The notes below the pieces were generated by a model. It saw only the letters and a program-made list of their open reading frames with translations, did not search any database and had not been told where the DNA came from. Positions 14,792 through 63,980 of a stretch of DNA of 64,000 nt are shown here, piece by piece (the stretch's first letter is position 1; the number at the start of each line of letters is the position of its first letter). The position numbers and the translations under genes were made by a program. The stretch is from a virus (taxonomy: Duplodnaviria > Caudoviricetes), in IMG/VR virus record IMGVR_UViG_3300014204_013734, positions 128,001 through 192,000 of that record, one strand, 5' to 3'.

Positions 14792-17700
14792 ATGAATCAG
14801 GATGAAAAAGTGGTCAAGAAGATACCCATCAGGAAGGGTATCGTTACGGGTCGACCCAACAAGGTTGTCACTTCAGCCATGCGGTCTAAAGTGGCATTTC
14901 CGACTTCCGGCGGTACTATCACGGGTTCCGGCGGGAATTTCTATTCTCCTGAACTGTCGACTGACTTCCTTGAACTCCCCCAAAGTATCAATGAACGTTG
15001 GAATTACTATCGCTTTTTCTATGACAACGAACCCTTCGTCGGGCAGGCTATAGATCTGCATACGGAACTTCCCCTTTCAAAAATCCGTCTGGTGCCGCCG
15101 GAAGCCAAGAATAGAGATTTGGCTCAGCAGGCGTTGACCTTTTGTGAAAAATGGTCCAAGAACATTCGGCTTCTTCACCGACTCATTGCAATCGTCCACG
15201 ATTATCACCTGATTGGGGAAGTGTACGTCTTTGCCGAAGACACTTCTCCTGATCTGCCACAGGATGTCCGGCAGGAACCCTTGCGGGAAATCACTTCCGA
15301 AGGGGAAGCCATAGAACGTTGGATAGATCGTCCTGACGCGGATGCACGGGCAATTGATTGGCTCAAGAGAAATTACAAGGGGTGGTCCGCTTTGAGGGTG
15401 CTTCCCCCTGAACAAATCCACATGACGTCATTCCCGTTCACTGACGAAAAAATTATTGAACTGGTTCCGGATTCTAAGACCAAGGACATTGTGGAAAAGG
15501 CTGACGCCGGGGATCTTCAGGCTGTCAGGGTCGTGGAATCCATGCCACAGGACATCATCCAGGCAATCAAGGAAGGTAAGAATATCCCCTTGAATACCGA
15601 TCCTGATGCCGGGTCTTTCGTTCATTATCTGGCTCGGAAGCGGAGTGATTACGACGAACACGGCAAGTCCATTCTTCAACGGTGCCTTCTGCCTGGAACA
15701 CCTATTTGGATCAAGCGGCATGGGACTATCCAACAGATTGCTGTGGAAGAGGTGAATGATTCCACGGATCTTTTGTTGACTCACCTGGGCCGGTTTATGC
15801 CTTGTAAGGCAGGAACCCGCCCGGTAGATGAAGAAATCACCGTCCTTGAAATCGAAGGTGTTGAAGAACCTTTGAAGCTGACTTCCGACCACGAAGTCCT
15901 TCGTGTCCTTGAAGACGGGTCTGAAGAGTGGGTTGCAGCAGGCAAACTGCAAATCGGGGATATTGTTCGGGAAAGTCATGTCCTTCTCGATGGAAATCCG
16001 GATGGAAATCCGGCAATTCCTTATCATTTCAAGAACATTGACATGGTCAGTTGGTGGTCGGGTCGTATCCTTGATTCAATCAAGCGCGGCAGACCCGGCA
16101 CAGATTTGTTGGAAACAGAACGGAAAGTTGTCGTTGAAGCTATTCATCCTGATGGGAATGGTATTGTCGTATCCTTCCGTCATGAAAATGACAATCGGAA
16201 CCGAGTGAAGATTAGTCCTGTGTTGGAAAAGATACTTTCTTGGGCGTTTAGCCTGGAAGTTCCCGTTGTCAAAACGCAGGCGGAAGTAGCTGTTCTTGCA
16301 GGGGTGTCGGAACGTGATGTTAGGATGTACGTCCCCCGTCTCCGTAAAGAAGGTCTGCTGAAGACGGAAGTCAGGTCCCTTGGCAGGGGGAAGGGTCAAT
16401 CCGTGACGTGGTTCCCTGCGGTAACTGGGACGCTTCCCCCTATTATTACAACCCTGTCTTCCCCTATCAGGAATATTGCCGTTGATGAAAATTTCTGTTG
16501 GTTGCTTGGGGCATGGTTTGGGGATGGTTTCGTTTGGACGGAACACGAAACTTTGTTGAACGTTGACTGTGTCGGATGGTCCCTTCACGACCAAGATGTT
16601 GAAGCTAAGGTCGTGGAATTGGTTGATAAGTATTTTGGTTCTGTGAATGTGAAGCGGGGTTGTCTCGTTGACAAGAACACGGATTCCGATGACCTTCGCA
16701 TTGAAGACCCCCTTTTGGCCCGTTGGTTTATGGAAGAATTTGGGTACACGGCACAAGGTAAGCAGATGCCCGAATGGCTTTTCCATCTTCCCGAAAGTTA
16801 CGTCCTGGCTTTTCTTCGTGGTCTGTTAGACACGGATGGTTGGATAGGGGTTGATACGGCATTTCAGATTGGGTTCGGCATGGACAATAAGGTTTTGATT
16901 GACCAGATGCACCTGTTGTGTAATCGGGTCGGGATCAAGACACATGTTGGGAAAAACCATAAGAAGGAACGTTCCTGGACAAGAACCTGGAACACCAAGA
17001 AGGGTGTTCGGGAAAAGACCTATGATTACGAAGCCAAGACTTATCCGACTTTGACTTGTTCTCGTTCCGAAGATGTTCGGCGATGGGCAGGGGAAGGAAG
17101 TATCAAGGGTTCCAGGGTTGAATGGGTAGACAGGGAACCAGACAACCGTAGGGGACCTAAGATGATCGGCGGATGGCTGGTCCACAGGATTGCTTCGGTT
17201 TTGAATACCCCCTACAAGGGTCCGGTGTGGTCGTTTGATGTTGAAGAGGATACTTCTCATTTTACTTCAATCATCACACATAATTGTTTGAGAACGCTGG
17301 TCTTCAGAGACAAGATTCGGCAGGCGCATACGTCCATTGCTTCTCGACACATGACGCCTTACCGGGTCATTTATGCCGAAAATATGAATGATGACCAGAC
17401 GGAAGCCTTGCGTGATCAAGTAGACTTGGCTTTACAAGACCCCGACTATTCCATCATCACGAACTTCGCGGTGACGTGGGAAGAAATGGGCGCCGATCAG
17501 CGGTTGCCCGACTGGTCTTGGGTGTGGGACATGACGGATCGTCAGCTTTATGCCGGTCTCGGCGTAACTGAAAGTCTGTTGTCCGGGGAAGGGGCCTATG
17601 GGGGTGACAGACTTCACCTAGAAGTTATCAACACCAGGTACATGTTACTGCGTGAAATCCTTCAAGATTTCGTTGAACATGATCTGTTCCGTCCTATGTG

Positions 17701-18070
17701 TGCAAGGATGGGGTTCGTTGAGGAAGACGATGAAGGGAATGTAGAACCTTTGGTTCCGCGTTTGTCCTTCACTCGTCTTGCTTTGCGTGATAATTCGGAC
17801 ACCTTTGACGCCTTGTTCAATCTCTACCAGAAGGGCAGCCTTGACATTGACATCATTCTGGATCTTCTCAACATAGATCCGGTAACAACCCGAGAAAAGC
17901 TGCAACGGGATGTGTTCACGTTGAATGATTCTTCGTTCAATGAAGTTTTACGGGGCATCTACCAGAAAGTCGGGGATCTTTTGGTAGAAGGTTCCGATGT
18001 TACGGAAAAGATTGCCGAAAACCTTGGACTGGTGTTCAAGAAAGTCAAGGAAGGCGGCGAACGTTTCTGA
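14792..18070 (+). CDS. Portal protein containing one intein
   Basis: Follows TerL; ~558-aa extein with portal-like motifs (EPFVGQAIDLHTELPL, HGKSILQRC, AGLGVTESLLSGE). Confidence 0.8.
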   Translation: MNQDEKVVKKIPIRKGIVTGRPNKVVTSAMRSKVAFPTSGGTITGSGGNFYSPELSTDFLELPQSINERWNYYRFFYDNEPFVGQAIDLHTELPLSKIRLVPPEAKNRDLAQQALTFCEKWSKNIRLLHRLIAIVHDYHLIGEVYVFAEDTSPDLPQDVRQEPLREITSEGEAIERWIDRPDADARAIDWLKRNYKGWSALRVLPPEQIHMTSFPFTDEKIIELVPDSKTKDIVEKADAGDLQAVRVVESMPQDIIQAIKEGKNIPLNTDPDAGSFVHYLARKRSDYDEHGKSILQRCLLPGTPIWIKRHGTIQQIAVEEVNDSTDLLLTHLGRFMPCKAGTRPVDEEITVLEIEGVEEPLKLTSDHEVLRVLEDGSEEWVAAGKLQIGDIVRESHVLLDGNPDGNPAIPYHFKNIDMVSWWSGRILDSIKRGRPGTDLLETERKVVVEAIHPDGNGIVVSFRHENDNRNRVKISPVLEKILSWAFSLEVPVVKTQAEVAVLAGVSERDVRMYVPRLRKEGLLKTEVRSLGRGKGQSVTWFPAVTGTLPPIITTLSSPIRNIAVDENFCWLLGAWFGDGFVWTEHETLLNVDCVGWSLHDQDVEAKVVELVDKYFGSVNVKRGCLVDKNTDSDDLRIEDPLLARWFMEEFGYTAQGKQMPEWLFHLPESYVLAFLRGLLDTDGWIGVDTAFQIGFGMDNKVLIDQMHLLCNRVGIKTHVGKNHKKERSWTRTWNTKKGVREKTYDYEAKTYPTLTCSRSEDVRRWAGEGSIKGSRVEWVDREPDNRRGPKMIGGWLVHRIASVLNTPYKGPVWSFDVEEDTSHFTSIITHNCLRTLVFRDKIRQAHTSIASRHMTPYRVIYAENMNDDQTEALRDQVDLALQDPDYSIITNFAVTWEEMGADQRLPDWSWVWDMTDRQLYAGLGVTESLLSGEGAYGGDRLHLEVINTRYMLLREILQDFVEHDLFRPMCARMGFVEEDDEGNVEPLVPRLSFTRLALRDNSDTFDALFNLYQKGSLDIDIILDLLNIDPVTTREKLQRDVFTLNDSSFNEVLRGIYQKVGDLLVEGSDVTEKIAENLGLVFKKVKEGGERF
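15683..17284 (+). mobile_element. Intein (534 aa) with LAGLIDADG endonuclease and an inserted winged HTH
   Basis: CLLPGTPI start, LTSDHEV block B, WLLGAWFGDG and FLRGLLDTDG, end VWSFDVEEDTSHFTSIITHN|C. Confidence 0.93.
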
Positions 18071-28511: not shown

Positions 28512-29090
28512 ATGACCCGCAAGAACGCGACATTGTCAGTTAACTACCAACAACGGGCGAAGCTATTTGCCGTAAACGATATTGTTTACCCGTTTTGGGG
28601 TTCCGCCGAAAAGACGGGACGTGTCGTGGCGGTTTACCCGGCAATTGGGATGGTTGATGTCGAATGGCCACACGGAAATGACCGTGTACCCGTTGAGGAC
28701 CTTCAGCAACTGAATCCCCACAGTCTGTTCCAACCTCCGTCCATCCCTGCCGGGGAAGATAGTATCCCCGGTGGGGCTGGGCAGGTTTCCGTATCCCCAG
28801 GACCAGTTAACAAAAATTCAGCTCTCCGTGTGGCGGCCGCTTTCATTAAGAAAGCCCTTTATTGGGCCGACAAAGACCGGCAGTACAAGGCCACGCAAGG
28901 GGAACTTGATGACAAGTGTTACCATTGCCCGAAGTGCGGGGAAGAACTGCGGAAGGCAATCTACAAACGTCGTGATGGCGCCAGTGTCCATCTTCTCGGT
29001 TGCGGAACATGCTTGTTCCTGATCAAAAAAGAAGACATCATTGGCGATCCTGAATATGCGGGTCCGAACATCGAAATAGAAGGTGTTTGA
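28512..29090 (+). CDS. Hypothetical protein with C-terminal zinc ribbon
   Basis: CPKC...CGTC; RVAAAF and KKA motifs between its two domains. Confidence 0.7.
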   Translation: MTRKNATLSVNYQQRAKLFAVNDIVYPFWGSAEKTGRVVAVYPAIGMVDVEWPHGNDRVPVEDLQQLNPHSLFQPPSIPAGEDSIPGGAGQVSVSPGPVNKNSALRVAAAFIKKALYWADKDRQYKATQGELDDKCYHCPKCGEELRKAIYKRRDGASVHLLGCGTCLFLIKKEDIIGDPEYAGPNIEIEGV

Positions 29091-29092
29091 CC

Positions 29093-32000
29093 ATGGCATT
29101 TTTGCGTTACAGTAACGCCCGGGTTGTTTCCCCCCACGTGACTCATGTGCAATGGGGGAAAATTAGGACGGCTGGCCTTGTTACTAAGGTTGGTGGCCAG
29201 TTGGACGAAAATCTTGTCGATCGGGCCAGTGAATTGTTCGACAAACAATTCAACCCCAACGACTTTCTTCTGACCCACGCCACTATCATTGCCAGCGTTG
29301 ACACGTACAAACCGGCCGGGGATATGGGGAAGACAGGTTCCTTCTTGATGGATGGATTCCGGGTCAACCGCAAATATGCGGATTATAGAATTACCCAAGA
29401 GACTCAAAAATACATCAACAGCAATTGCCTTGTTTCTGGGACGCCCATTGTGATGGCAGATGGAACAGCAAAATCAATTGAAGATGTTGTTGTAGGGGAT
29501 GATGTTATCACCCATATGGGACGGATCAGAAAAGTCACAGAAACTTTTTGTCACGAAGTTCATGGAAACTTGTATGAAATCAAAGTATATGGTTCTAACG
29601 AACGTCTGCATGTGACTAAGGACCATCCTTTTTTTGTTTTTCGTCCAAATAAACAATGTGCTGAGTGTGGAAGCCCCTTAAAAAGATCTTTGCAATGTAT
29701 TTCGCAACTGCTTGGGAAGCATTACTGTTCCAAGGAATGCTATTACAAGAAAAGGGTCACAAACAAAGAACTTCTTAAAAAGAAGCATGGGGTTTTCGTT
29801 CCCGTACATGATTTGCAGGTAGGGGATTTTGCAGCAGTTCCTGTAGTTTCAGAAGAAATTCCAGTTAATTTGACATTAGGGCAGGCTCGTTTGATTGGCC
29901 TTTTTCTTGCGGAGGGTTATTACGAATTAGATAGCCGGCACGATAATGAAAAAGTTGGGGCTATGTGGGCGTTTCATGAAAAAGAAACAGAAACATTAGC
30001 CCATACTGTTTGTTCTTTGATGAAATCAGAATTTGATGTGGATTGTGTCATTCGTCATTGCACTGATACTAAAGGTATTATGGTAACGACAAAAGTCAAC
30101 CGCCAAGCTGCGGCTTTCTTTTCCCGATGGGTTCTTGGAGAAGATTCTACTAGTAAATATCTTTGCGCGGATTTGTTGAGGGCTCAGAAACCCATTCAGA
30201 TGGAAATAATGCGTGGCTGGTTTGATGGGGATGGTTCGGCTTTTAGTACCGGAACTGAAGAAATTCCCATAAGGGATTTTCGGATGACCGGATGCACATC
30301 ATCTCGGAAAATGGTTTCCCAACTGCAAATAATTCTGCATCGTCTTGGTATTTCACCTCGGTTAGCCTATGTTCTTAGTGAAGGTCGCCAACGAACGGTT
30401 ATTGATGGTCTTGTTAAGGTGATACCTGATCCAACAAAAATTCAATACAGTTGGGTTTTGTCTTGTGGCGCTGGATGGATATCTGAATTGGTAGAAACAA
30501 CCCGATTTGAAGAATCTTATAATGAAGTCATGTCTATTTTAGGGGGGGTTCAAGAAGTTCCAGATCTTAGGTTTCTGAATGGTTTTTGTATTAGGATGAT
30601 AACTTCAATAGAACCATATCCTTATCAAGGATTTGTTTATAACATTGAAACAGAAGAAGATCATTCTTACATTGCAGGTGGAATTGCCGTACATAATAGC
30701 GATAGTTGGTCCCGTGAAGTGCTTTTGAAGGCGTATCCAACGTTCATTGGCGGGCACAATTTCTGTTTTGCACCGGGTACTAGGGTTCTCTTGGAAAATG
30801 GCATCTATAAAGCCATTGAAGAAATACGTGTTGGCGACAAAGTTGTTACCCACAAAGGTGTGTTGCAGGAAGTAACCCACAAATTTGAACGCCAATTCCT
30901 GGGGAATCTTCAGGTTATTTGTGTGGATGGGTTTGAACATCCCTTGCGTGTTACTGGAAACCATCCTTTTTTGGTGATGGAAAACCAAACTGGAAATACC
31001 TGGATTCCAGCAGATAAACTGCAAGTTGGAACCCTCTTGGCAGGGACCAGTTCGGAAATAGGTGCTGTCAATTATCGTGTCCTATCCAATGTTGAAGTTT
31101 CTTACGAAGGTCTTGTGTACAATCTTGAAGTTTGTGATGATAATTCCTACATCGTGGAACCTGGTGTTGCAGTTCATAATTGCGAGCACGTCCAGGTTGA
31201 ATCTCTGAGCAAGGGTCGCATCATTGATGCAGTTGCCCGTGACATCGGGGATTCGGTCTACGTTGACATCCTCATTGCCACTGACCGCAGACACAAGGAT
31301 CTCATTGAATCCATTGAAAATGGCAAGACGAATACACTGAGTATGGGATGTTCAGTGGACATGACTACATGTACTAAATGTGGCCACGTGGCCGCTGACG
31401 AGACCACTCTTTGTAACCATATAAAATACGAAAAAGGCAATACCTTTTTTGACGAGCAAGGACGGTCACATCGTATCTGCGAAATTTGCGGCCACCAGTC
31501 TATTGATCCGCACGGAGGGGTTCAGTTCATTGAAGCTTCGTGGGTTGCCCAACCGGCATTCACTGGAGCTGTGATGAGGAACATCATTCAGCCGACCGAA
31601 GATACCGTTCGTTTGGCGCAGCACATTCTCAATACCCCTCCGCCGCAATGGACCGAAGATTCCCGTCTGAAAGCCGCTAGGCATGAGGTTGTTGGGTCTA
31701 CAGGGACGGACGGCAACGGCAACGGCAACGGAGAAACGGTTGTAGTAGGTTCCTCAAAATTCCGTACGGCAGACATGTCTTCCGGCGGACGGCATTTCAC
31801 TGTTACGGCTGCCGAAATGGATCCTTTCATGGCAGGTTGGAACGAAGAGGATTCTTCAGGTACGGAACCGGAAAAACCACCTGTCCAGCCAACCCCAGCG
31901 GATCCTTTGACGCAGGTTGAAGACGATTTGGAAAAGCACCTTGTAGACAAGGTCGTCAAACGTGTCAGGGATCGTCTAAAAGACCAGGCTGTTGAAGAAA

Positions 32001-32431
32001 CTCTGAAACCGTCGTCAGCCGAAACCAACGAAAACGTGGTTAAAGAAGCCCGTACCGCCAAGTTGGCGATTCGTGTTTACAAGGCTGGTTTGAAGGCCCT
32101 TGTCAAGAAGTCAACCAACGGGGCGGATCTGTTGGATTCCGTTGCTGCATTCAATCAACAGGCAGGAATTGATATCCCCGTTGACGTTTACCGGACGGCA
32201 TTGGCTGTAGGTCCTTCTTCTGACCATGAGTCTATCGATTCGTTCCTGGATAAATGTTCACAGTGTTTGGGACGGTGTCCCGACATCAGTGAATCAAAAA
32301 CTCTGGTGAAGTTGTGCAAGTTGCTTTCGCAAGGACAACCTTTGTGGAAAGCGGATTCCAGTGGAAGCCCCCTAAATCAGGGGACGCGTCAAGCGGTTCG
32401 AAACAAACCCGATTGGAGGAACGTGAAATGA
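29093..32431 (+). CDS. Prohead (capsid maturation) serine protease with two inteins
   Basis: Spliced extein NSN|SDSW...YPTFIGGHNF|CEH...TLSMGC...CTKCGH...FIEASWVAQPAF fits a His/Ser phage prohead protease; upstream of scaffold and capsid genes. Confidence 0.82.
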   Translation: MAFLRYSNARVVSPHVTHVQWGKIRTAGLVTKVGGQLDENLVDRASELFDKQFNPNDFLLTHATIIASVDTYKPAGDMGKTGSFLMDGFRVNRKYADYRITQETQKYINSNCLVSGTPIVMADGTAKSIEDVVVGDDVITHMGRIRKVTETFCHEVHGNLYEIKVYGSNERLHVTKDHPFFVFRPNKQCAECGSPLKRSLQCISQLLGKHYCSKECYYKKRVTNKELLKKKHGVFVPVHDLQVGDFAAVPVVSEEIPVNLTLGQARLIGLFLAEGYYELDSRHDNEKVGAMWAFHEKETETLAHTVCSLMKSEFDVDCVIRHCTDTKGIMVTTKVNRQAAAFFSRWVLGEDSTSKYLCADLLRAQKPIQMEIMRGWFDGDGSAFSTGTEEIPIRDFRMTGCTSSRKMVSQLQIILHRLGISPRLAYVLSEGRQRTVIDGLVKVIPDPTKIQYSWVLSCGAGWISELVETTRFEESYNEVMSILGGVQEVPDLRFLNGFCIRMITSIEPYPYQGFVYNIETEEDHSYIAGGIAVHNSDSWSREVLLKAYPTFIGGHNFCFAPGTRVLLENGIYKAIEEIRVGDKVVTHKGVLQEVTHKFERQFLGNLQVICVDGFEHPLRVTGNHPFLVMENQTGNTWIPADKLQVGTLLAGTSSEIGAVNYRVLSNVEVSYEGLVYNLEVCDDNSYIVEPGVAVHNCEHVQVESLSKGRIIDAVARDIGDSVYVDILIATDRRHKDLIESIENGKTNTLSMGCSVDMTTCTKCGHVAADETTLCNHIKYEKGNTFFDEQGRSHRICEICGHQSIDPHGGVQFIEASWVAQPAFTGAVMRNIIQPTEDTVRLAQHILNTPPPQWTEDSRLKAARHEVVGSTGTDGNGNGNGETVVVGSSKFRTADMSSGGRHFTVTAAEMDPFMAGWNEEDSSGTEPEKPPVQPTPADPLTQVEDDLEKHLVDKVVKRVRDRLKDQAVEETLKPSSAETNENVVKEARTAKLAIRVYKAGLKALVKKSTNGADLLDSVAAFNQQAGIDIPVDVYRTALAVGPSSDHESIDSFLDKCSQCLGRCPDISESKTLVKLCKLLSQGQPLWKADSSGSPLNQGTRQAVRNKPDWRNVK
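29426..30697 (+). mobile_element. Intein (424 aa) with LAGLIDADG endonuclease and a Cys-rich insert
   Basis: CLVSGTPI, VTKDHPF, LIGLFLAEG and MRGWFDGDG, end VYNIETEEDHSYIAGGIAVHN|S. Confidence 0.95.
30764..31180 (+). mobile_element. Mini-intein (139 aa)
   Basis: CFAPGTRV, VTGNHPF, end VYNLEVCDDNSYIVEPGVAVHN|C; no endonuclease domain. Confidence 0.95.
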
Positions 32432-33906
32432 AGAATACTCGTGAACGCATGACGTGGCAGGCGGCTGGCCGGAAGGCTTCCGCCCCGCCCGCAACCCCGG
32501 GTTACGGGAAAGAAGATCAGGATCACCCGGCTCACCTGCCGGATCCCGACGCCAAAAAGTACGAAAACGGTGACACGTCTTCGTGGGCGGAAGATCCCCA
32601 TCAACCCCCGTACCCACAGGGCAACCCGCCCAGTACGCCGGGTTACGACGTCGAAGACAAGGATCATCCGGCTCACATCGACCTGCCTCGTGTGCCGAAG
32701 GAAGCCCGTGCCCTGGCTGCTGCGCAGCGCAAGGCTGCCAAGTGCATCCGGGTCGCAGAACTTATCCTTCAGAACGTGCCCGGCAAGACGGCGGAAATGG
32801 TTGAAGATCAGGCATTGGATCTGATGAACCTTCCGGATTCCGGCGTTGAAGCGACTTTCGGTCGGATTAGTGGTGGATTCTTGGCGGAAGACGAGTCTTT
32901 TGACGAATTGGACGAACTGCTCGCTGATGACGAAGAAGATGCGGCGCCAGTGGAAGAGTCCCCGAAGACCGCCATGGAAGACATTCTCTTGGCCGTCAAG
33001 AAGTTGTCGGAAGATGTGAACGAGCTCAAGACTGGTAAGCGTGCCGATCAGAACGACCCGAAGGGTCCTACGTTGGCGCCGAAGCCCAAGACTGAAGAAG
33101 AAGCCCGCAAGCCCGAAGTCACCGCTGCTGATAGCGATCCGGTCATCAAGGAATTTGACACCTACGACACCAGTAAGACCGGGTTCCTGATGTCCGATGA
33201 ATGGAAGGGCAGCAGGGCGGTTTTTGCGGCTCTTGACACTGACAAGGACGGCATCATTGCCCGTTGCGACCTCGTTAAGATGGCGTGTGGCTGTGACGAA
33301 ACGGTTCCCATGATGGCGAATGAACTGGATACGGAAGAAGAGGCTCTTCTGGCCGAGTTTAACCTGGAAGACGTTCCCGTGACGGCAGAAGAAATTCCTG
33401 CTGAGGAACCGGTTCCAACGGTTTCCTGCGACCAAATGGCGGAAGAAGACACTTTGGAAGACATCACTTTGGCCGAAGATGCCCAAGACCCCATGGGTCT
33501 CGCTGACGAACCGGAAATGACGGAAGACTTGGCGCTTCTGGCTGAGATTCTTGGCGGCAAGGTTGCCAAGAAGGCCGAAGACGAGGAAGAGAACGACGAA
33601 GCTGAAACTGACGACGAAGAAGAACCGGTGAAAGAAGGCGGCAAGGGCAAGAAGGCCACCAAGAAGTCCGAAGACGAAGCTGACGATGAAGCTAAGACGG
33701 ACGACGAAGAGAAAGAAGAAGAACCGGTGAAAGAAGGCGGCAAGAAAGCTGCTGTCCGTGTTGCTTCTCGGCGCCCACAGCCCCGCAAGGTCAGTGCCGG
33801 TGTCAAGTCGGTAGGCAGCGTTCCGAAAGTCCATACTGACGAAATCAAGGAACTGTCCAAGCTTTGGGAGAGTTCTCCTGATGTCAGTGGGGCCTTCAAC
33901 GGCTGA
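32428..33906 (+). CDS. Putative capsid scaffolding protein with an EF-hand-like pair
   Basis: Highly acidic; between protease and capsid genes; GGAGG RBS; ATGA overlap; FDTYDTSKTGFLMSDEW and LDTDKDGIIARCDL. Confidence 0.7.
   Translation: MKNTRERMTWQAAGRKASAPPATPGYGKEDQDHPAHLPDPDAKKYENGDTSSWAEDPHQPPYPQGNPPSTPGYDVEDKDHPAHIDLPRVPKEARALAAAQRKAAKCIRVAELILQNVPGKTAEMVEDQALDLMNLPDSGVEATFGRISGGFLAEDESFDELDELLADDEEDAAPVEESPKTAMEDILLAVKKLSEDVNELKTGKRADQNDPKGPTLAPKPKTEEEARKPEVTAADSDPVIKEFDTYDTSKTGFLMSDEWKGSRAVFAALDTDKDGIIARCDLVKMACGCDETVPMMANELDTEEEALLAEFNLEDVPVTAEEIPAEEPVPTVSCDQMAEEDTLEDITLAEDAQDPMGLADEPEMTEDLALLAEILGGKVAKKAEDEEENDEAETDDEEEPVKEGGKGKKATKKSEDEADDEAKTDDEEKEEEPVKEGGKKAAVRVASRRPQPRKVSAGVKSVGSVPKVHTDEIKELSKLWESSPDVSGAFNG
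33578..33750 (+). repeat. Internal duplication encoding EDE..DEA.TDDEE..EPVKEGGK twice
   Basis: gaagaagaaccggtgaaagaaggcggcaag occurs twice. Confidence 0.75.
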
Positions 33907-34822: not shown

Positions 34823-34832
34823 GGAGGGAGCC

Positions 34833-35717
34833 ATGACACAAACCAATCAAGTTGACAATGCCGTTCGGCAGCGCATCATCGGCGACCTTATCAAGACCCC
34901 TGCGGGTCGTGCAAAGCTTGCCGCTTCCATGACGCAACCTCTCCGTACCCGTCGTGACTATGCCGCGGTCGGTCGTAAGACCTTCCTCGTCGAACAGCTC
35001 CCCGACGGTGCTCTCCCGATCTACGACAAAGACCCGGACATCACGGCTTTTGTCGTGGGTGAAGAAGGTCAGAACATTCTGGCCGTCACGAAACCTCGGC
35101 GCGTGATTTTCCCGTTGTTCGAAATTGCTTCGAACCCGGAAATCCCGCTCACCCAAATCAAGGAACGTCGGTTCGACCTCATCGAACGGTCCCAGAACTT
35201 GGCTCGCGCCCAGATTCAGGCCGCTGAAGATGAGAGGACCTTTGCGGTTCTTGACAGCATCGCAACCTTCGGTTTTGACAGCCTTGCTGGACAGTTGAAC
35301 CCGGACATCCCGGTTGTGGCCCCAATCAGCTCTGCCGTCCTCGCCGACGCATTCAGCTTGGTTGAACGTCAGGACCTCCGTGTTGCTCGCGTTTACATGA
35401 ACGCCCGTGACTACGCTGACCTGCGTAAGTTCGGCCGTGACATCCTGGACATCGAATCCCAGGCGACTTTGCTGAAGACCGGTCTCATGGCGACCCTCTG
35501 GGGTGCCCAGGTCGTGACCAGCCGTCTCGTGCCCGTCGGCACGGTGTACGTTTGTTGCGAGCCGGAACACTTCGGTCGCATTCCAGTCCGTACGGAATTG
35601 ACGGTCCTGTCTGCTGACGACCCGAAAGCCCGTACAATTGGTTTCTCATGCTTCGAGAATTTAGGCATAGGCGCTTTCAACCCGCGTGGTCTGGCCCGTC
35701 TGACCATCACCCGCTAA
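34833..35717 (+). CDS. Major capsid protein (compact, 294 aa, probably HK97 fold)
   Basis: AAGGAGG RBS; strong codon bias; followed by a terminator; capsid-like motifs (FEIASNPEI, AQIQAAEDERTF, VYMNARDYADL, TLWGAQVVTS). Confidence 0.82.
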   Translation: MTQTNQVDNAVRQRIIGDLIKTPAGRAKLAASMTQPLRTRRDYAAVGRKTFLVEQLPDGALPIYDKDPDITAFVVGEEGQNILAVTKPRRVIFPLFEIASNPEIPLTQIKERRFDLIERSQNLARAQIQAAEDERTFAVLDSIATFGFDSLAGQLNPDIPVVAPISSAVLADAFSLVERQDLRVARVYMNARDYADLRKFGRDILDIESQATLLKTGLMATLWGAQVVTSRLVPVGTVYVCCEPEHFGRIPVRTELTVLSADDPKARTIGFSCFENLGIGAFNPRGLARLTITR

Positions 35718-55085: not shown

Positions 55086-55703
55086 ATGTCCAATTTGCGT
55101 GAAAAGATCATCCGTCTGGCCAATGAACATCCTGAAACGAGGAAACATTTGATGCCTATCATCAAGAAAGGGGAATGGGATCCCCGGCACGGGTGGCCAA
55201 AGGCGGAAGCCGACCAGTGGGTTGATCAGGCCACGAAGGACTTGAATAGTCTTGTTGAACAGTTTGTCATGGATGTGCAAAAGAGTGGAAAGTTTGAATT
55301 GCCAGAAGCGAAGCGAATCAGCAATCACTATTTGCCGAAAATTCAAAAGTATTTTGCTGGTAGGTTAGAATCTGTGATTCACATTGATAGTGACCGAAAG
55401 GTAGCTGCAAACGATTTGGCTTCGGTCATGCAGAATAGGATGATAGCTGAACTTTACGACGTGTATCCTAAAGGTCAGGCCAACAAGATAGTAGCAGCTA
55501 TTGAAGGTTTGTTCAAGAAATTGGATTTTTCGTGGGAACCTGAAGGATATTCCAGGTTTCGTATTGAAGTGGTTGCCAAGTTGGGTTCGGTTGAAGTAGG
55601 GTCTATGACCTACAACATGCTGACTGGCGAGGTTGAGATTCGCAGCGGTGTGTTTGCCGATGATCGTTTGGTCAAAGCTATCAATGGCCTAAAAGGGGTC
55701 TAG
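55086..55703 (+). CDS. EHPETR-tagged protein
   Basis: MSNLREKIIRLANEHPETRKHLMPIIKKG; GAGG RBS. Confidence 0.8.
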   Translation: MSNLREKIIRLANEHPETRKHLMPIIKKGEWDPRHGWPKAEADQWVDQATKDLNSLVEQFVMDVQKSGKFELPEAKRISNHYLPKIQKYFAGRLESVIHIDSDRKVAANDLASVMQNRMIAELYDVYPKGQANKIVAAIEGLFKKLDFSWEPEGYSRFRIEVVAKLGSVEVGSMTYNMLTGEVEIRSGVFADDRLVKAINGLKGV

Positions 55704-55705
55704 AG

Positions 55706-56182
55706 ATGGATCAGCTTCTTGTTAGGTTAGCAAAGATTGCTTCCGAGCACCCTGAAACCAGGAAGTGTCTTGTTCCTTTGATTAAAGAAGCTGGCGGTAA
55801 GGTTGCTTACAGAATGGATTCTGATTTCACTGAGGGTGTCAAAGAAATGTGGCCAAAAGTCCTTAAGTGGCTGCGGTCTGGGGATACCAACAGAATCCAA
55901 AAGAATTTTCAAACATCCAAGCAAGAGGCTTTGATGTTTATCGGAAACGCATCCCAAATAATTAATCAACACAAGGACCTTCTCAAAGAGGACAAACCAT
56001 ACCTCCTCGGTTCTGTGGCGTGGCACGCCGAAGTTGACGCTAATTTGAAGCGGTATTCCAAAAGGGCGGGGTGGATGATGGCTGCTTGGGCCGGGGCTTT
56101 TCCGGACCGGGCTCTCAAAATGGCTTGGCCTCGTGAAACGTTCCCTGGGCTTGAGGAATGGTGGTCTGAATCCAAGAGATGA
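55706..56182 (+). CDS. EHPETR-tagged protein, paralog of 56206..56718
   Basis: MDQLLVRLAKIASEHPETRKCLVPLIKEA. Confidence 0.8.
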   Translation: MDQLLVRLAKIASEHPETRKCLVPLIKEAGGKVAYRMDSDFTEGVKEMWPKVLKWLRSGDTNRIQKNFQTSKQEALMFIGNASQIINQHKDLLKEDKPYLLGSVAWHAEVDANLKRYSKRAGWMMAAWAGAFPDRALKMAWPRETFPGLEEWWSESKR

Positions 56183-56205
56183 AATTCCGTTGGGAAGGGA
56201 ATTAC

Positions 56206-56718
56206 ATGCAAACGCTTCTTGTTAGATTAGCGAAAATCGCGTCAGAGCATCCTGAAACGAGGAAACACTTGATACCTATCATCAAGGAAACTGGTAGTAA
56301 GTTTGCTTATTCTGCCGATCCCGATTCCGTTGCCAGCACCAAGAAAATGTGGCCAAAAGTCCTTAAGTGGTTGCGGGCCGGGGATACCGCCAGTATTGAA
56401 AATACTTTTGAAGCGTCCAAGCAAGAAGCCTTGACATTTCTTGAATATCCAATCCTACCGTTGTTCTATCGGCACGTGGATCATCTCAAATCAGACCAAC
56501 CTTACCTCAACGAATCTTCTGACTGGCGTGCTGAACTTGATGCCAATTTGAAGGCATATTCCCGAGAGATCGGTTTCATGGTAGCTGCGTGGGCTGGGAT
56601 GTTTCCAGAAGAAGCACTAAAAACAACGTGGCATAAAGAACGTTTCTCCGGGCTTGAGGAATGGTGGTCTGAATCTGGGGCAAAAGAATGGTCTGACAAG
56701 TCAGGGAGACATTCATGA
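56206..56718 (+). CDS. EHPETR-tagged protein, paralog of 55706..56182
   Basis: MQTLLVRLAKIASEHPETRKHLIPIIKET; shared MWPKVLKWLR and GLEEWWSES. Confidence 0.8.
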   Translation: MQTLLVRLAKIASEHPETRKHLIPIIKETGSKFAYSADPDSVASTKKMWPKVLKWLRAGDTASIENTFEASKQEALTFLEYPILPLFYRHVDHLKSDQPYLNESSDWRAELDANLKAYSREIGFMVAAWAGMFPEEALKTTWHKERFSGLEEWWSESGAKEWSDKSGRHS

Positions 56719-57182
56719 ATCGGGAAGAACAAGTGGTGGAAGCCCGAAAGGAAGTGGCAAAATTGGCGGCTTCCGTCAGGACGGCGGCAGGTTATAGCCC
56801 TGATCCCATTAAGAAGTACGTCACCATTGAGTTGACCAATACCGATGTCAGCTTGTTCTTTCATTTGCTGTATCAACCCAAGATTGAGTTGGATGTGTGG
56901 TACGTGGATGTCAAAGACCGAATGATGGACACCGAATCCGACATGAAGAAAGTCTTTGCCAAAATCGACGAAAGTTGGCGAAGTACAAAATTCCGTTTTG
57001 ACCCTTATGTTGAAAAGGCCAAGGAAGGAAATTACCTGCACGTAGGGGGAATTTCTTGGCAAGCTCAATATCCGAAAGGGTGGTTGGAGAAGTTGGGGGT
57101 CCGCAGTGCGAAGGATTTCAAGAAAATGATCCTTCCTTTGATAGGGACTACCTGGGAAGTCCGAGAAGTTTCCATTGTGTAA
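56715..57182 (+). CDS. Hypothetical protein, paralog of the C-terminal domain of 58097..58732
   Basis: YPKGWLEKLG...ILPLIGTTWEVRE versus FPLGWLEELG...ILPLVGGTWNIRE. Confidence 0.75.
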   Translation: MNREEQVVEARKEVAKLAASVRTAAGYSPDPIKKYVTIELTNTDVSLFFHLLYQPKIELDVWYVDVKDRMMDTESDMKKVFAKIDESWRSTKFRFDPYVEKAKEGNYLHVGGISWQAQYPKGWLEKLGVRSAKDFKKMILPLIGTTWEVREVSIV

Positions 57183-57195
57183 GGAAAGTACTTCC

Positions 57196-57546
57196 ATGAA
57201 AACGCTTCTTGAAAGTTTGAAAAAAGTAGCTGCTGAACATCCTGAAACCAGGAAGGTGCTTCTTCCTCTGATTAAAGAAGCTGTTTCCTGTGGGGAACAC
57301 GGGAAGATCGCCGCATTGGATCCGATCATCAAGCGAATTGGGGATTTGGTGAAGGGTAAGAAACTTGTTGATCTCAGGAAACCCTTGGAAACTATTTTTC
57401 CGAAGAAGGCCATTGACTTTTCTTTTGAAGTGGGGGGCCATTTTACCGTCAAATACAAGGGAAAGACAATTATTTTGGTGAATAAAAAGTATGCTGATGA
57501 TCCAGATTTGGTTGTGGATGATATTGCTATTGGATTTGCTAAATAA
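57196..57546 (+). CDS. EHPETR-tagged protein
   Basis: MKTLLESLKKVAAEHPETRKVLLPLIKEA. Confidence 0.8.
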   Translation: MKTLLESLKKVAAEHPETRKVLLPLIKEAVSCGEHGKIAALDPIIKRIGDLVKGKKLVDLRKPLETIFPKKAIDFSFEVGGHFTVKYKGKTIILVNKKYADDPDLVVDDIAIGFAK

Positions 57547-57580
57547 GGGTGTGTTTCGTCTGACCGTGAAAGGGAACTAC

Positions 57581-58048
57581 ATGAAAACGCTTCTTGAGGG
57601 TTTGAAACGGATCGCGTCGGAACATCCTGAAACCAGGAAACATCTCGTTCCGATCCTGAGGGAAGCTATGGATTTCCCTTCTGAAAAAGCATTGAAGGAT
57701 TATCTGAAGGAACATCCAGACGCCGATAAGTCAAAGCATCATGTGAAGAAGCAGAAAGGCAATGAAAAACTGAAATCAAATTTGAAGGATGTGCTCAGAA
57801 CATTTCCGAAAGAATTGGTAGCTGAAGTAGGTCCTGAGCTCCGACGGTTAAATCGTCTTTTGAAAGGCAACCCGGAATTCGGAGACGTGAGTCGGGTCTT
57901 GATAGACGTGCAAACAAAATTGGAAGACCCTTGGAGGGATACTTCAAAGACTGATCCGGCGGAATTCTATAAACGGACACCTCTCAACAAAGCGATTGCC
58001 GACTTTGCAAAAGCCAAGTATGAAGAATTGACGGGGGAACGTTGGTGA
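57581..58048 (+). CDS. EHPETR-tagged protein
   Basis: MKTLLEGLKRIASEHPETRKHLVPILREAMDFPSEKALKDYLKEHPDADKSKH. Confidence 0.8.
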   Translation: MKTLLEGLKRIASEHPETRKHLVPILREAMDFPSEKALKDYLKEHPDADKSKHHVKKQKGNEKLKSNLKDVLRTFPKELVAEVGPELRRLNRLLKGNPEFGDVSRVLIDVQTKLEDPWRDTSKTDPAEFYKRTPLNKAIADFAKAKYEELTGERW

Positions 58049-58096
58049 TGTTTTGCGTCAGTTACTTGATTGATCAAATTCAGGAGATCGCTTCCC

Positions 58097-58732
58097 ATGT
58101 CCATTCTTGAAGGTTTGAAACGAATCGCATCCGAGCATCCTGAAACCAGGATGGCACTTCTTCCCCTAATCAAGGAAGCATCTTCTTGTGGGGACAAGTA
58201 CAAGAATGATGAGGGTACGTTCAAAGGGAAGCCAGGGGAGAAGTTTGACAACTGCAAGAAATTTATGACGGACTGTCGGGATGACGTGGACGACCCGGAT
58301 GCCCTTTGTGCTTGGATTGGAAGGGAGCACGGGAAGATTGCCGCCGGAACAGACCCTAAGCGGTACCTCCAGATAGATTTGAATCCAACTGGTTTAACTG
58401 TGTATTTCAACTTATTGTACTTAGAAGGCGAAGGATTGACGAACCTGTATGAGGATGTTCAAAAGAACATCAATCTGGCACTTTCCCATTTCAAAGGTTT
58501 CTTTGCGGAAGTAGGGGATGGCGGGGTCATCAAACACAGTCCTAATCTGAAGGATGCTGTTATTTCTCATGAAGTGAACAAGTTGCGGGTGTCCGGCATT
58601 GTTGGTACTGTTAAGTTTCCGTTGGGTTGGTTGGAAGAACTTGGTATTCACGATGAGAACGATTACCGGGAAAAGATCCTGCCTTTGGTAGGAGGTACTT
58701 GGAATATACGTGAAATTTTCATTGGAAAATGA
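58097..58732 (+). CDS. EHPETR-tagged protein
   Basis: MSILEGLKRIASEHPETRMALLPLIKEA; AGGAG RBS. Confidence 0.8.
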   Translation: MSILEGLKRIASEHPETRMALLPLIKEASSCGDKYKNDEGTFKGKPGEKFDNCKKFMTDCRDDVDDPDALCAWIGREHGKIAAGTDPKRYLQIDLNPTGLTVYFNLLYLEGEGLTNLYEDVQKNINLALSHFKGFFAEVGDGGVIKHSPNLKDAVISHEVNKLRVSGIVGTVKFPLGWLEELGIHDENDYREKILPLVGGTWNIREIFIGK

Positions 58733-58733
58733 C

Positions 58734-58781
58734 ATGCTTGATTTGGTAGGGACTACCTGGGAAATCAACCTGTCTAAATAG
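58734..58781 (+). pseudogene. Remnant 3' end of a 56715-like gene
   Basis: tagggactacctgggaa (58747-58763) is identical to 57142-57158; encodes LVGTTWE. Confidence 0.55.
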
Positions 58782-58795
58782 TGAAAGGTACTTCC

Positions 58796-59251
58796 ATGCA
58801 AACGCTTGAAGAGCTGAAGAAAATTGCTGCGGAACATCCGGAAATGCGGAAGAAAATAGTTCCCTTCATCAAGCAGGCATTGGTGAAGCCCGAAGTCAAC
58901 GTGGACGTGAAGCGTGATGGTATCGTCTTCAATTTCACATGGCGTCTTCCTAACATAGGTTCGGTTGATGAATTCCCGATCCACGTCAGGAATGCAACAT
59001 TCCTATTGGATAGTGTAGTAGAAGGTATCCGTAAGGAATTTTCTGGAACGACCAAGAAAGATCAGGACGACCTTATTTGGTTGTGGACTTCCAAGGGAGT
59101 TTACTTGACCGGGCGTTTGATGCCGAATGTTGGTGTTTTCGGTATTCCCGTAGCTGAACATGTGGAACGTCTTGGAGGGCGGAAGTCTTTTGAAACCGTC
59201 CTGAAGGGTTTGTTCAAAGGATGGAATGTTGTCAGCCTAAATTGGACGTGA
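58796..59251 (+). CDS. EHPETR-tagged protein
   Basis: MQTLEELKKIAAEHPEMRKKIVPFIKQA. Confidence 0.8.
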   Translation: MQTLEELKKIAAEHPEMRKKIVPFIKQALVKPEVNVDVKRDGIVFNFTWRLPNIGSVDEFPIHVRNATFLLDSVVEGIRKEFSGTTKKDQDDLIWLWTSKGVYLTGRLMPNVGVFGIPVAEHVERLGGRKSFETVLKGLFKGWNVVSLNWT

Positions 59252-59592: not shown

Positions 59593-59605
59593 AAGGAACT
59601 TTTAC

Positions 59606-61084
59606 ATGTTCAGTATCAACAACCCCTTTTTGAAAATTGTCCAGGAAGCCCTTGAAGATACGGTTAGAAATTCCAAGATGTATTTCTTGGACAAGGACCC
59701 TGTGCGGAATGCACAGGGTTGGTATACTTGGAAATTGTCCGAAGTTAAGGGTGCAGGTGGAATCTGGCAGATGGAATTTTCGGTCAAGGAATCTACCGGG
59801 GAAGCTTTGGTGCAAGTGTTTCCGATTGGGTGGACTGCCCCTGGAAATTCCTCCGTCACGAGTAAGTCACTGTCTGGGTCTGTTGGGGATATACGGTTGA
59901 ATGTAGGTGAGGCGATCAAGTCTGGGATAGACAGGGCGCGGAAATATTCATTTTTCCAGAAATTCCTTCAGGAAAATGCGGGGGGTACTGGTGAATTTGA
60001 ACGGACATTCAAGGAAAACTTGATAAAAGCCACCCATCGTTTTGATGGTCTCAGTTTTTCATCTCAACAACCCATTCGGAACGTTAACGGAAGATTAACC
60101 TGGGAATTGACCTGGGATATGGGGAACGCTTTTGCTTTTGGAAAATGGGACATTGTGTTGACTGTTGAAAAAGAACAGGGAAGGGTTGAAGCGAAAATCA
60201 AACCTTTTGGTTTCACTTCTTCCGGCGTGGTTATCCCCTATTCCGTCAAAGCTTGGCCCTTTTTTGATGTTGGTGCATTTCTTTTGGACGGCGTCCGCAA
60301 AGCCAAAAGGTCCGGTCTTTTCCAGAAATTCCTTCAGGTAAAGAAGGGATCCAAAGTTGCTTCTTTTCCTTCCGTGGTAAGTCCGGAAACCAAAAGAATA
60401 GTGAAGCCTTTGATGGCGGATCTTTTCAGGAAATCCCAAAAAGACCCATGGGTAGTGGCGGATGCTGCTTATATGGTTTCGGCCGCTTCTGGGGTACTGG
60501 CGGGGTGCTATGCCCATTGGTCCAGACGTTTCCCGGTCATCAGCGAAATGTTTATGGAAACGGATCGTTCAAGTGAAAAAATCAACACCCTTTGGGAATC
60601 TTTGATGCCTGATCTAGAGAATAATTTTACCCAGGTTTCTGCGAGCCGTGTTGCTTCCCGCCATTTGGAAGCACAGGTTACGAAAGATGTTTGGGTTTAC
60701 TATGACAGGACAGCCATCTATTTTGAATTTGATTGGCCCTTGTATCCGATGGATTGGATCCACAACATCCCGAAGCAGGCGGATGCCTGTCGGACGGCTT
60801 TGGAAAAGGCGGTAGATCTTCTTCAAAAACAATTCGGGGGCAGGGAAAAGAAGGTTTCAGACAAGGCTAAGATGTACTACAGTATCCGGGACGAAGACGG
60901 ACGGTTGGTGCTGACTGGTTCCGCGCCGGCAGCGAACGGTGTGTTTGGTTTGGACGTTCCAGCAGAGGTACAGGATATTGGGGGGACGGCGGATTTCGAG
61001 AAGGCTCTTTCGGAAACTTTCCACAAGGCCGGTTGGACCGTCAAAGATCGGGATGATCTGATAGATTGGGACGACTTGGTGTAA
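59606..61084 (+). CDS. Multidomain protein: tandem duplicated domain, RVASRH tag, C-terminal domain paralogous to 58796..59251
   Basis: PVRNAQG..FFQKFLQ and PIRNVNG..LFQKFLQ; GVFGLDVPAEVQDIGG versus GVFGIPVAEHVERLGG. Confidence 0.75.
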   Translation: MFSINNPFLKIVQEALEDTVRNSKMYFLDKDPVRNAQGWYTWKLSEVKGAGGIWQMEFSVKESTGEALVQVFPIGWTAPGNSSVTSKSLSGSVGDIRLNVGEAIKSGIDRARKYSFFQKFLQENAGGTGEFERTFKENLIKATHRFDGLSFSSQQPIRNVNGRLTWELTWDMGNAFAFGKWDIVLTVEKEQGRVEAKIKPFGFTSSGVVIPYSVKAWPFFDVGAFLLDGVRKAKRSGLFQKFLQVKKGSKVASFPSVVSPETKRIVKPLMADLFRKSQKDPWVVADAAYMVSAASGVLAGCYAHWSRRFPVISEMFMETDRSSEKINTLWESLMPDLENNFTQVSASRVASRHLEAQVTKDVWVYYDRTAIYFEFDWPLYPMDWIHNIPKQADACRTALEKAVDLLQKQFGGREKKVSDKAKMYYSIRDEDGRLVLTGSAPAANGVFGLDVPAEVQDIGGTADFEKALSETFHKAGWTVKDRDDLIDWDDLV

Positions 61085-62561: not shown

Positions 62562-63980
62562 ATGGGCTGGGGTCCGGGACCAAACGACCAACCCATCCCC
62601 CCACAGAATGTAATGTTGGTCCGCCCGTCCATATCGGGCGTTCACCATGGGGTTTGGGATATTAGATGGGATGACCCATCCCTCCTGGCGCGTAATGCGG
62701 CTTGGACGGTGGTGGGCGTCAACATTTACAGGTCGGACGTTTCGGACCTCGGCCCGTTTTACCGAATCAATGAATTCCCCGTAGGTGGGGGTTTCTTTCG
62801 GGACATCACGAAAAACGTCAGGACGATTGAGACCGTTGACTGGAACACCGGATGGCTTTCAAAGGGCGATTCGCCCAATGACCGCCGATGGGTCATTAAG
62901 ACTACGAATCCCATCGTCAAAGAAAATTCAGAACCTCCGTTTGATAGGCCGATTCCTGCCAATCTTCCTTCTGATGTTCACGTCTACATTGATGGGGTTG
63001 AGGCAGGTGTAGACAATGTGTTTGGACCATCGGGGGAAGTCAAGCTCATTGACCAGGAAACGTTTGATACCATCACGGAAAAGATTATCCCTCCGGTTCT
63101 TCCTACCACTGCTACTTCTGTTGTTGAAATCGTGTATTTCCGAAACATCAATCACATCCAGACCGGTCTTGAATCGGGGGTGTTTTACAGGCTGACGACA
63201 GTTGTGATTGACGCTACAAAGCCTAGCGGGTACAACGAAACGGATCTGGATTGGTGTAAACCGGCAGTAGCAAACGTGGTGGAGGAGTTGGATTACATCT
63301 GGCGTGAAGCAGTCCGCCGGAACCAGTGGATACTCCAGCAGGGTGGGGAACGGGTCAAGATTTTCATCAGACGTCAGTCTGGGATTCCTTGTGATTGCGG
63401 GCTGGATCCTCGCCAGTTGGAATATTCAGGACAGCCTTCTAATAGGTGTCAAAAATGTTATGGCACATCTTTTGTTGGCGGCTTCGAGGGCCCGTATGAG
63501 GCCCTTATCGCCCCTGACGATGCTGAACGCAAGATTTCACAGCAACCTACGGGTCGTAGGCAGGAACACATGTACGAAGTGTTCATGGGTCCTTCTCCTA
63601 TGGTATCCATGCGTGATTTCATCGTGAAGCAGAACAATGACAGATACACCATCGGGGCAGTCAGGCGCCCGACGAACCGCGGGAACCTGCTTCAGCAACA
63701 TTTTAGTATCAATTCAATGGATGGTCAAGACATCCGTTTCATGGTCCCCATTGACGGAGTAGACACTTTGGTATTCCCACAGACACGTTATGGCAGGCGT
63801 CAGGTCCCGGCTATGCCGGTTGACGGTGAACTTCGTATGTCCCCGTCTACGCAACCGGATAAACCCGCGTATCCTCTTGGTCCCGATGCCCAAACCCCGA
63901 TGCAGACGGACAAGCAACCTTGGGCTGAAGGGACACAGCAACGCGGTAGGACTCCGAGTTGGGAGAATTCAACCGAATAA
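62562..63980 (+). CDS. Putative neck/head-closure structural protein
   Basis: GGERVKIFIRR...CDC...CQKCYGTSFVGGF zinc-containing motif; function inferred from motif and late-region context. Confidence 0.55.
   Translation: MGWGPGPNDQPIPPQNVMLVRPSISGVHHGVWDIRWDDPSLLARNAAWTVVGVNIYRSDVSDLGPFYRINEFPVGGGFFRDITKNVRTIETVDWNTGWLSKGDSPNDRRWVIKTTNPIVKENSEPPFDRPIPANLPSDVHVYIDGVEAGVDNVFGPSGEVKLIDQETFDTITEKIIPPVLPTTATSVVEIVYFRNINHIQTGLESGVFYRLTTVVIDATKPSGYNETDLDWCKPAVANVVEELDYIWREAVRRNQWILQQGGERVKIFIRRQSGIPCDCGLDPRQLEYSGQPSNRCQKCYGTSFVGGFEGPYEALIAPDDAERKISQQPTGRRQEHMYEVFMGPSPMVSMRDFIVKQNNDRYTIGAVRRPTNRGNLLQQHFSINSMDGQDIRFMVPIDGVDTLVFPQTRYGRRQVPAMPVDGELRMSPSTQPDKPAYPLGPDAQTPMQTDKQPWAEGTQQRGRTPSWENSTE

Follow-up and report, generated by a model that had tools for sequence, protein, structure and literature searches.

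The capsid-targeting sequence (CTS) of phage T4 is carried by the internal proteins IPI, IPII, IPIII, and Alt (Mullaney and Black 1996; reviewed in PMC3012670 and PMC7411985). In SPN3US and phiKZ, ejection and inner-body proteins possess propeptides that are cut by the prohead protease and for which prohead targeting has been proposed; the C-terminal propeptide of the prohead protease is also a proposed targeting element (PMC7411985, PMC5694885). The subject of the present work is a peptide tag of about 28 residues that recurs on otherwise diverse proteins in a 64,000-nucleotide stretch of a tailed phage (Caudoviricetes; IMG/VR record IMGVR_UViG_3300014204_013734). This stretch, bases 128001-192000 of one virus contig of 381,280 bp (genome G000), is referred to as the window, and positions are those of the window unless a genome position is named. 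The contig is approximately 72% complete according to IMG/VR, so that the genome measures at least 381 kb, and proteins identical to those of this phage are also found on 444-kb contigs. The comparison of its copies supports the view that the tag forms a discrete peptide module, portable among proteins that are otherwise unrelated.

A hidden Markov model (HMM) of the tag was run against the six frames of the whole genome. The ten copies that a sequence-only reading of the window had claimed were all found where it had placed them, with E-values from 1e-13 to 3e-17, and no match occurred in a wrong frame. Two weaker copies lie beyond the window, at genome 292833 (N-terminal) and genome 344986 (internal, in a WGR-domain protein), which brings the total to 12. 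The count of ten proteins was therefore right for the window but understated the scale, since the genome has 12 copies and the wider family comprises 1,227 protein clusters. Most tagged proteins of this genome bear one tag each, and most of them are basic (pI >9). All genes of the window are on the + strand. The array genes are closely packed, each preceded by a purine-rich ribosome-binding site, and the internal copy at 5795 starts with an ATG that has a good Shine-Dalgarno sequence (AAAGGAG) 8 nt upstream. The tagged genes, with two untagged neighbors that are needed for the comparison, are the following.

5348..6373, + strand: open reading frame (ORF) with an internal tag at about 5795-5890, located by the tag HMM.
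10321..10668, + strand: C-terminally tagged protein of 115 aa, the tag being its last 30 residues (10576-10665).
11894..12349, + strand: N-terminally tagged protein of 151 aa, whose gene immediately precedes that of the large terminase; an EF(S/T)xEALKxYLxxHPxAD module comes after the tag.
55086..55703, + strand: array gene 1, encoding 205 aa with an N-terminal tag and an orphan body.
55706..56182, + strand: array gene 2, N-terminal tag, with gene 3 as its paralogue; a weak full-length relative starts the array of the related phage G002.
56206..56718, + strand: array gene 3, N-terminal tag, 56% identical to its paralogue gene 2.
56715..57182, + strand: untagged array gene, homologous to the C-terminal domain of the 58097 protein (35% identity).
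57196..57546, + strand: array gene, N-terminal tag, 116 aa, orphan body.
57581..58048, + strand: array gene, N-terminal tag and HPxAD companion module; its body recurs inside protein P0013.
58097..58732, + strand: array gene, N-terminal tag, a mini-domain with four cysteines, and a C-terminal domain in common with 56715.
58796..59251, + strand: array gene, N-terminal tag, body homologous to the C-terminus of the 59603-61084 protein.
59603..61084, + strand: untagged protein of 493 aa with which the variable island ends; the 58796 body is a relative of its C-terminal domain.
Genome 344827-345807, outside the window: WGR-domain protein with a divergent internal tag.

The portability of the tag becomes evident when it is removed and the remaining bodies are compared by BLASTP. 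Only few pairs are then linked: the bodies of 55706 and 56206 are paralogues, and 11894 and 57581 have an additional 29-residue module in common. The tagged proteins comprise at least seven body types, and the earlier statement that the sequence after the tag is mostly unrelated between genes was largely right. The same body can also be found with and without the tag, as in 58097 compared with 56715, 58796 with 59603, and ORF 5348 with protein P0162 of a relative. Indeed, the C-terminal domain of ORF 5348, downstream of its tag, is a stand-alone untagged protein in relatives, and the body of 57581 recurs inside P0013, an 827-aa multi-tag protein of another phage; units encoded here as separate genes are thus fused in relatives such as P0013. 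The edge of conservation is sharp, with the information content at background 2-3 residues past the K-x-A that ends the tag.

What is conserved is the peptide. Pairwise identity between the copies is 0.57 at first, 0.77 at second, and 0.39 at third codon positions, 310 of 609 same-residue codon pairs use differing codons, and the DNA upstream of the tags shows no conservation beyond the purine-rich ribosome-binding site. Since these three observations locate the conservation at the level of the peptide and not in a DNA repeat, selection acts on the tag peptide, not on the DNA.

A profile of the tag alone was searched against 1.84 billion protein cluster representatives, where it matches 1,227 clusters at E <= 1e-3, of which 69 reach E <= 1e-10. 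The best 150 of the 1,227 proteins have 1-5 copies each. The 288 copies in these best 150 proteins are N-terminal in 117 cases, C-terminal in 39, and internal in 132, which bears out the claim that the tag occurs at either terminus. The consensus of the wide family is sLRxxLIRLAxxxPELRxxLLPLLKEA, in which A10, P14, R17, and P22 are nearly invariant. Ten representatives were looked up; their clusters are all metagenomic and unnamed, on contigs of up to 444 kb.

In agreement with the earlier reading, which did not recognize the tag as a described family, it has neither a Pfam nor a PHROGs family. The best Pfam match of the tagged proteins is LRV_2, in one protein, at 13.1 bits against a cut-off of 27 bits (E = 0.1), and PHROGs gives nothing significant. 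Among 108 members of the wide family, Pfam matches LRV in one and LRV_2 in one. Membership in a known family such as the LRV or HEAT-like repeats is not supported, as the best match stays below the gathering score. When all tagged proteins and 118 wide-family members were searched in Pfam and PHROGs, no tag family and almost no cargo domains were found, and a description of the tag is absent from Pfam, PHROGs, and the literature searched. The few recognizable cargo domains are GNAT, WGR, and Zn ribbons. GNAT-type acetyltransferase domains are tagged C-terminally in G002 (L010:6501-7178), and in P0008 the tag likewise stands after the GNAT domain.

With regard to distribution, a search of cultured phages with a two-tag protein (tblastn) gave no match, and the tag is absent from phage G, the Tunturiibacter phage Tunturi_5, and Rctr197k, which are distant sharers of the lineage of the major capsid protein (MCP). 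A search of viral contigs with the tag alignment returned 3 loci only. A degenerate, back-translated tag pattern was scanned over 185,579 prokaryote species genomes (596 Gbp) and gave ten matches. Nine of them are not true tags; the tenth is, and it comes from a 1.9-kb contig in a metagenome-assembled genome of Acidobacteria. The wide occurrence in non-phage proteins that would have spoken against the earlier reading was thus not seen in these prokaryote genomes. To judge from this match and from Tunturi_5, tag-bearing phages may have Acidobacteriota as hosts. These searches support the conclusion that the tag is confined to one huge-phage clade and practically absent from cellular genomes.

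Further short modules accompany the tag. EF(S/T)xEALKxYLxxHPxAD(K)SKHTV directly follows it at 11980-12070 and 57670-57760, and FLAKAKPETKERMKGxSPADFMKxLGAIxDEEE precedes it; GCEKLPEGxMRxNC and GKFEEGKPADPT are other recurring motifs. Such companion modules are seen in many relatives, including P0013, P0015, P0017, and P0004, and some relatives are Lys-rich chains of short modules without a globular body. The four-cysteine mini-domain after the tag of 58097 (58180-58370) has the pattern CGDxYKNxxGTFKG...FDNC...C...C..IGREHGKI and could bind metal or form disulfides; relative P0035 has the order tag, mini-domain, tag.

Each genome keeps its own dialect of the tag. That of the present genome is xLLExLKrIAsEHPETRKxLVPLIKEA, with 12 copies. 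The nearest deposited record, LR745208.1, is an uncultured 485-kb phage whose large terminase subunit (TerL) and MCP are 62% and 84% identical, respectively, and its 11 copies follow TLRSKLIRLAHENPALRPxLLPLLKEA. In G002 (TerL 64%, MCP 86% identical), which has 10 copies, the dialect is KLASDNPELRKHLVPLLK, and in G001, with 5 copies, it is KLAAExPELRQHLVPLLR. Mean tag identity is 0.50-0.80 within genomes versus 0.42-0.56 between them, a difference that was reached in 0 of 2000 label permutations. The columns of the tag that determine the dialect are 7-9, 11-13, 15-16, and 18-19. In same-residue codon pairs of the present genome, the codon is identical in 46% of cases versus 37% expected from codon usage; the copies are therefore old, and their likeness is not upheld by recent gene conversion. 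Since each genome keeps its own dialect, a common reader for each phage, differing between phages, suggests itself, and the simplest reading is that one partner recognizes all tags of a genome.

As to its structure, the tag is confidently predicted to fold on its own. AlphaFold2 modeling of the tag alone, with an alignment of 117 sequences, gave a mean predicted local distance difference test score (pLDDT) of 92.6 and a model with a helix at residues 3-13, a one-residue break at the conserved x-Pro, and a second helix at residues 15-30. An ESM Atlas look-up of the whole 11894 protein returned chance-level rows only.

The genomic setting of the tagged genes is given by the head genes and by one gene of the tail region, as follows.

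12353..14233, + strand: TerL.
14792..18070, + strand: portal protein with a LAGLIDADG insert.
18143-27439: multidomain protein of 3098 aa, between portal and protease.
27560-28507: the 27560 protein, with KTA-type strings.
29087..32431, + strand: prohead protease split by two inteins, one of which has a LAGLIDADG endonuclease.
32428..33906, + strand: acidic scaffold-like protein with a conserved PRVPKEA motif, and with an EF-hand in relatives.
After the scaffold-like protein: decoration-like protein of 232 aa.
34830..35717, + strand: HK97-fold MCP, homologous to phage G gp27 (PDB 6wkk; E = 9e-60).
62562..63980, + strand: conserved gene just past the end of the island, with homologues in Tunturi_5 ("minor tail protein") and in phage G (gp175).

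The 7 kb upstream of the terminase gene hold three tagged genes, the last of which abuts the terminase gene; the portal gene comes next. The seven-gene array is placed about 20 kb past the MCP gene and just before the tail-region gene 62562-63980. The phage G counterpart of the latter, gp175, adjoins the tail tube genes of that phage; 62562-63980 is the only one of the flanking genes that could be linked to the tail region, and Pfam tail-sheath families were not found in the genome.

The array has a counterpart in relatives. Collinearity of G002 with the window extends from the terminase gene to about 52 kb and resumes at 61.8 kb, and between these blocks G002 has its own array of ten tags. 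This array shows a weak body match to the present one for the first gene only, and the other cross-matches are the tags themselves. A third array, with eight tags, is found in L006 behind the same upstream genes and, like the present one, contains a GIY-YIG gene. The position of this hypervariable island is conserved: the tag and the place are kept, and the cargo is replaced.

Two genes directly upstream of the array deserve mention. The gene at 49368-52024 stands just upstream in all three syntenic arrays; it is a DUF7487 gene in L006 (L006:1436-2758) and is split here by an intein and an endonuclease. A gene of this type is a candidate partner of the tag. Between it and the array, 52202-54991 encodes a 929-aa protein of repeated homing-endonuclease-like and zinc-ribbon modules, which has no counterpart in G002 and is probably a mobile insertion.

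The head proteins are also relevant to the junction at which the tag ends. In the wide family, the 231 copies that are not at the C-terminus have K or R in 75% and then A in 58% at the tag end, and K-x-A-S is enriched ahead of internal copies. C-terminal copies mostly stop at ...PLLK, so the earlier statement that the tag usually ends in K/R-x-A applies to N-terminal and internal copies but not to these. Removal of the tag by the head protease at K-x-A may be inferred from this pattern. A comparable string, KTA[GSA], is present five times in the 3098-aa protein against 0.19 expected, a number reached in 0 of 1000 shuffles, and KTA-type strings are present also in the 27560 protein and the scaffold; KTA[GSA] is a candidate maturation-cleavage motif. 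The PRVPKEA motif conserved in the scaffold is another string of this kind. The motif hydrophobic-hydrophobic-K-[EQ]-A has 16 matches in the genome versus 4.8 expected, six of them being the tags themselves, and might weakly suggest a cleavage motif of that form. LIRLA-like helices in the C-terminus of the protease and in the scaffold, which were considered as kin of the first tag helix, are undetected by the HMM and possibly due to chance.

Taken as a whole, the motif is likely to be a portable label, for addressing or docking, that a single reader recognizes in each phage. The prohead, where the tag would load cargo into the head, is the best reading of its destination, although its probability is slightly less than even. 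On this reading, one phage-encoded reader would recognize the label on about a dozen unrelated, small, and mostly basic proteins per genome, and these would be packed into the assembling prohead as internal cargo. The cargo would then enter the host together with the DNA, as the CTS serves the internal proteins of T-even phages, and the head maturation protease would likely separate cargo from tag at the K/R-x-A junctions found at the end of the tag and often ahead of internal copies. Grounds for choosing the prohead include the gene that abuts the terminase gene, the place of the array between the head genes and the tail-region gene, and the finding that 10 of the 12 copies are inside the 64-kb TerL-to-tail window, which is 17% of the genome. 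Moreover, particle proteomics of phage G, which shares the MCP lineage, is reported to have found many non-structural enzymes in virions. Co-folding of scaffold, MCP, and tag scored 0.00 in two runs, which had no controls and in which the tag fold was uncertain, and speaks neither for nor against binding.

Several points weigh against this account. Two of the 12 copies are far from the TerL-to-tail region, and 7 of the 11 tagged genes of LR745208.1 lie outside it. LR745208.1 does have one tagged gene between scaffold and MCP, but the present genome and three further relatives are free of tags for 10 kb to either side of the MCP gene; an enrichment of tags beside the MCP gene was accordingly rejected, and the LR745208.1 gene, not being general, was dropped as an argument. 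In many relatives, single proteins bear 2-5 tags or are tagged at both ends, and such multiple, C-terminal, or both-end tags are unlike the T4 CTS, since one copy would suffice for loading. The 3098-aa protein is without a tag and, if it is packaged, a second loading route must exist. Concerning cleavage, KTA is not enriched in the G002 homologue of that protein, and the G002 protease is without the K[EQ]A site found in the protease here. The conserved blocks that flank the array are mostly unnamed, and 42554, 45459, and 47463 gave no matches in PDB sequence, PHROGs, Atlas, and tblastn searches. No cultured carrier of the tag is known. Finally, the dialects could also be produced by lineage-specific expansion from one ancestral tag.

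The alternative that survives best, although it is unlikely, is that the tag is a docking module for a hub outside the virion, such as a phage chaperone, a compartment or replication factory, or the host RNA polymerase, protease, or ribosome, and serves to gather diverse effectors at one site in the infected cell. The evidence for a portable label with one reader fits this alternative equally. The scatter of tags over LR745208.1 and their absence near the MCP gene in the three relatives are in its favor; position independence and multiple copies suit a docking motif, and the recognizable cargo domains (GNAT, WGR, and Zn ribbons) are not structural. It has to face, on the other hand, the concentration of copies in the TerL-to-tail region, with one gene abutting the terminase gene, as well as the place of the array between head and tail-region genes, conserved in three phages. 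If the hub were a conserved host component, the differing dialects of closely related phages would be harder to explain.

A distinctly less probable explanation is that the tag associates with itself to form a multivalent network, such as a condensate or a protein body in the interior, only some members of which would touch the head or another structure. Proteins with tags at both ends, tandem tags, and 3-5 tags are common, and the two short helices have conserved hydrophobic faces that they could not bury alone. The uniformity of tags within a genome could reflect the need of a module to recognize itself. P0035, a natural relative of 58097 that is tagged at both ends, is predicted to be all-helical and fairly compact (pLDDT 79, predicted template modeling score (pTM) 0.62); a fold search with it in PDB and ESM Atlas gave no meaningful structural neighbor. 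Against self-association, contacts between tags were seen with none of the tools applied, most tagged proteins of the present genome have a single tag, and multi-tag proteins can also be explained by the fusion of neighboring tag-plus-body genes.

It is improbable that the tag has no address function and merely represents the slowest-evolving, N-terminal helices, for example a structural cap or stability element, of one or a few fast-evolving paralogous families. The distant body relations of 55706/56206, 58097/56715, and 58796/59603 agree with such an origin; further hidden homology may exist between bodies that were compared by BLASTP, and lineage-specific expansion could yield dialects. Nevertheless, a paralogous origin does not readily account for a tag that is N-terminal, C-terminal, or internal and is found on enzymes of unrelated folds (GNAT, WGR), for bodies that exist with and without it, for the sharp conservation boundary 2-3 residues past K-x-A, or for its predicted ability to fold alone. 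A DNA-level feature, that is, a recombination cassette or promoter-leader unit with the peptide as a by-product, can hardly be upheld: the genes are closely packed with a purine-rich ribosome-binding site each, but third codon positions are 39% identical versus 77% for second positions, upstream DNA is unconserved past that site, promoter- and terminator-like sites do not exceed the shuffled expectation, and C-terminal and internal copies are without such an upstream context.

Some other features of the head region and of the clade were observed. The scaffold-like protein has an EF-hand (DTDKDG...), and Pfam EF-hand families match most of its relatives; calcium binding would be unusual for a scaffold. 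The proteases of G002 and LR745208.1 are intein-free. A full-length glutamine synthetase, an auxiliary metabolic gene, is encoded at 39202-40524 between the head genes and the array (Gln-synt_C, E = 9e-139). The MCP clade is uncultured, very large, and very conserved, with >2,040 relatives at E <= 1e-20; the best 120 listed relatives are 86-93% identical and come from contigs of up to 536 kb. Scaffold and tag diverge much faster than the MCP.

If the label loads the head, sequence alone would suffice to recognize the proteins injected by uncultured huge phages of a large and abundant clade. The clade has >2,000 MCP relatives, and almost all of the 1,227 clusters marked by the tag are without a known domain. 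The tagged proteins would then be prime candidates for host takeover in the first minutes and for counter-defense. A self-folding label of 28 residues, if functional at either end, could provide a handle for packing foreign proteins into large capsids, and the genome-specific dialects allow the co-evolution of a peptide label with its reader to be put to the test. Should the destination be another than the head, a portable docking tag of such scale would still be undescribed in the libraries and papers searched.

Compared with the known systems, the tag resembles the T4 CTS in being a short peptide common to otherwise diverse proteins (here 12 copies on at least seven body types), in a hypervariable locus where related phages differ but retain the tag, in its late or structural gene context with small and mostly basic cargo, and in the candidate protease junction that follows it. 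It differs in sequence, as the earlier reading had maintained, since its consensus has no similarity to MKTYQEFIAE. In addition, it has about 28 residues in two predicted helices versus 10-20 residues in T4, it is also C-terminal, internal, and multi-copy whereas the CTS is N-terminal only, and its junction is K/R-x-A instead of L/I-x-E. The present phage, itself uncultured, has a phage G-type MCP and is not T4-like. SPN3US and phiKZ are likewise giant phages, and they are known to pack many non-structural proteins; their propeptides, however, are 64-130 residues long, do not constitute a single portable module common to all, and are cleaved at A-x-E, and their lineage is unrelated to this phage.

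The C-terminus of the P22 scaffolding protein is a coat-binding helix-turn-helix, a small basic two-helix element that docks inside the procapsid. It belongs to one protein and not to a cargo family, and no sequence relation of the tag to it was found. MuF-fused phage toxins and the MIX and LXG effector markers are similar to the tag in that a conserved delivery module is combined with rapidly exchanged effectors in arrays; they are larger domains tied to known machines, compared with 28 residues here, and the comparison is one of analogy. The cargo-loading peptides of encapsulins are short, occur at either terminus, as the tag does, and serve unrelated cargo that enters an HK97-fold shell. 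They are of another sequence class and extended, whereas the tag is predicted to be two-helical, and encapsulins are without DNA, portal, and protease. An encapsulin-like, position-independent loading of cargo in a tailed phage, with a prohead receptor, release at K-x-A, private dialects, and a large, fast-renewing arsenal of ready-made injected proteins that spans more than a thousand clusters, is a possible but doubtful extension of the prohead reading. If it were true, the private dialects would stop co-infecting relatives from loading each other's cargo.

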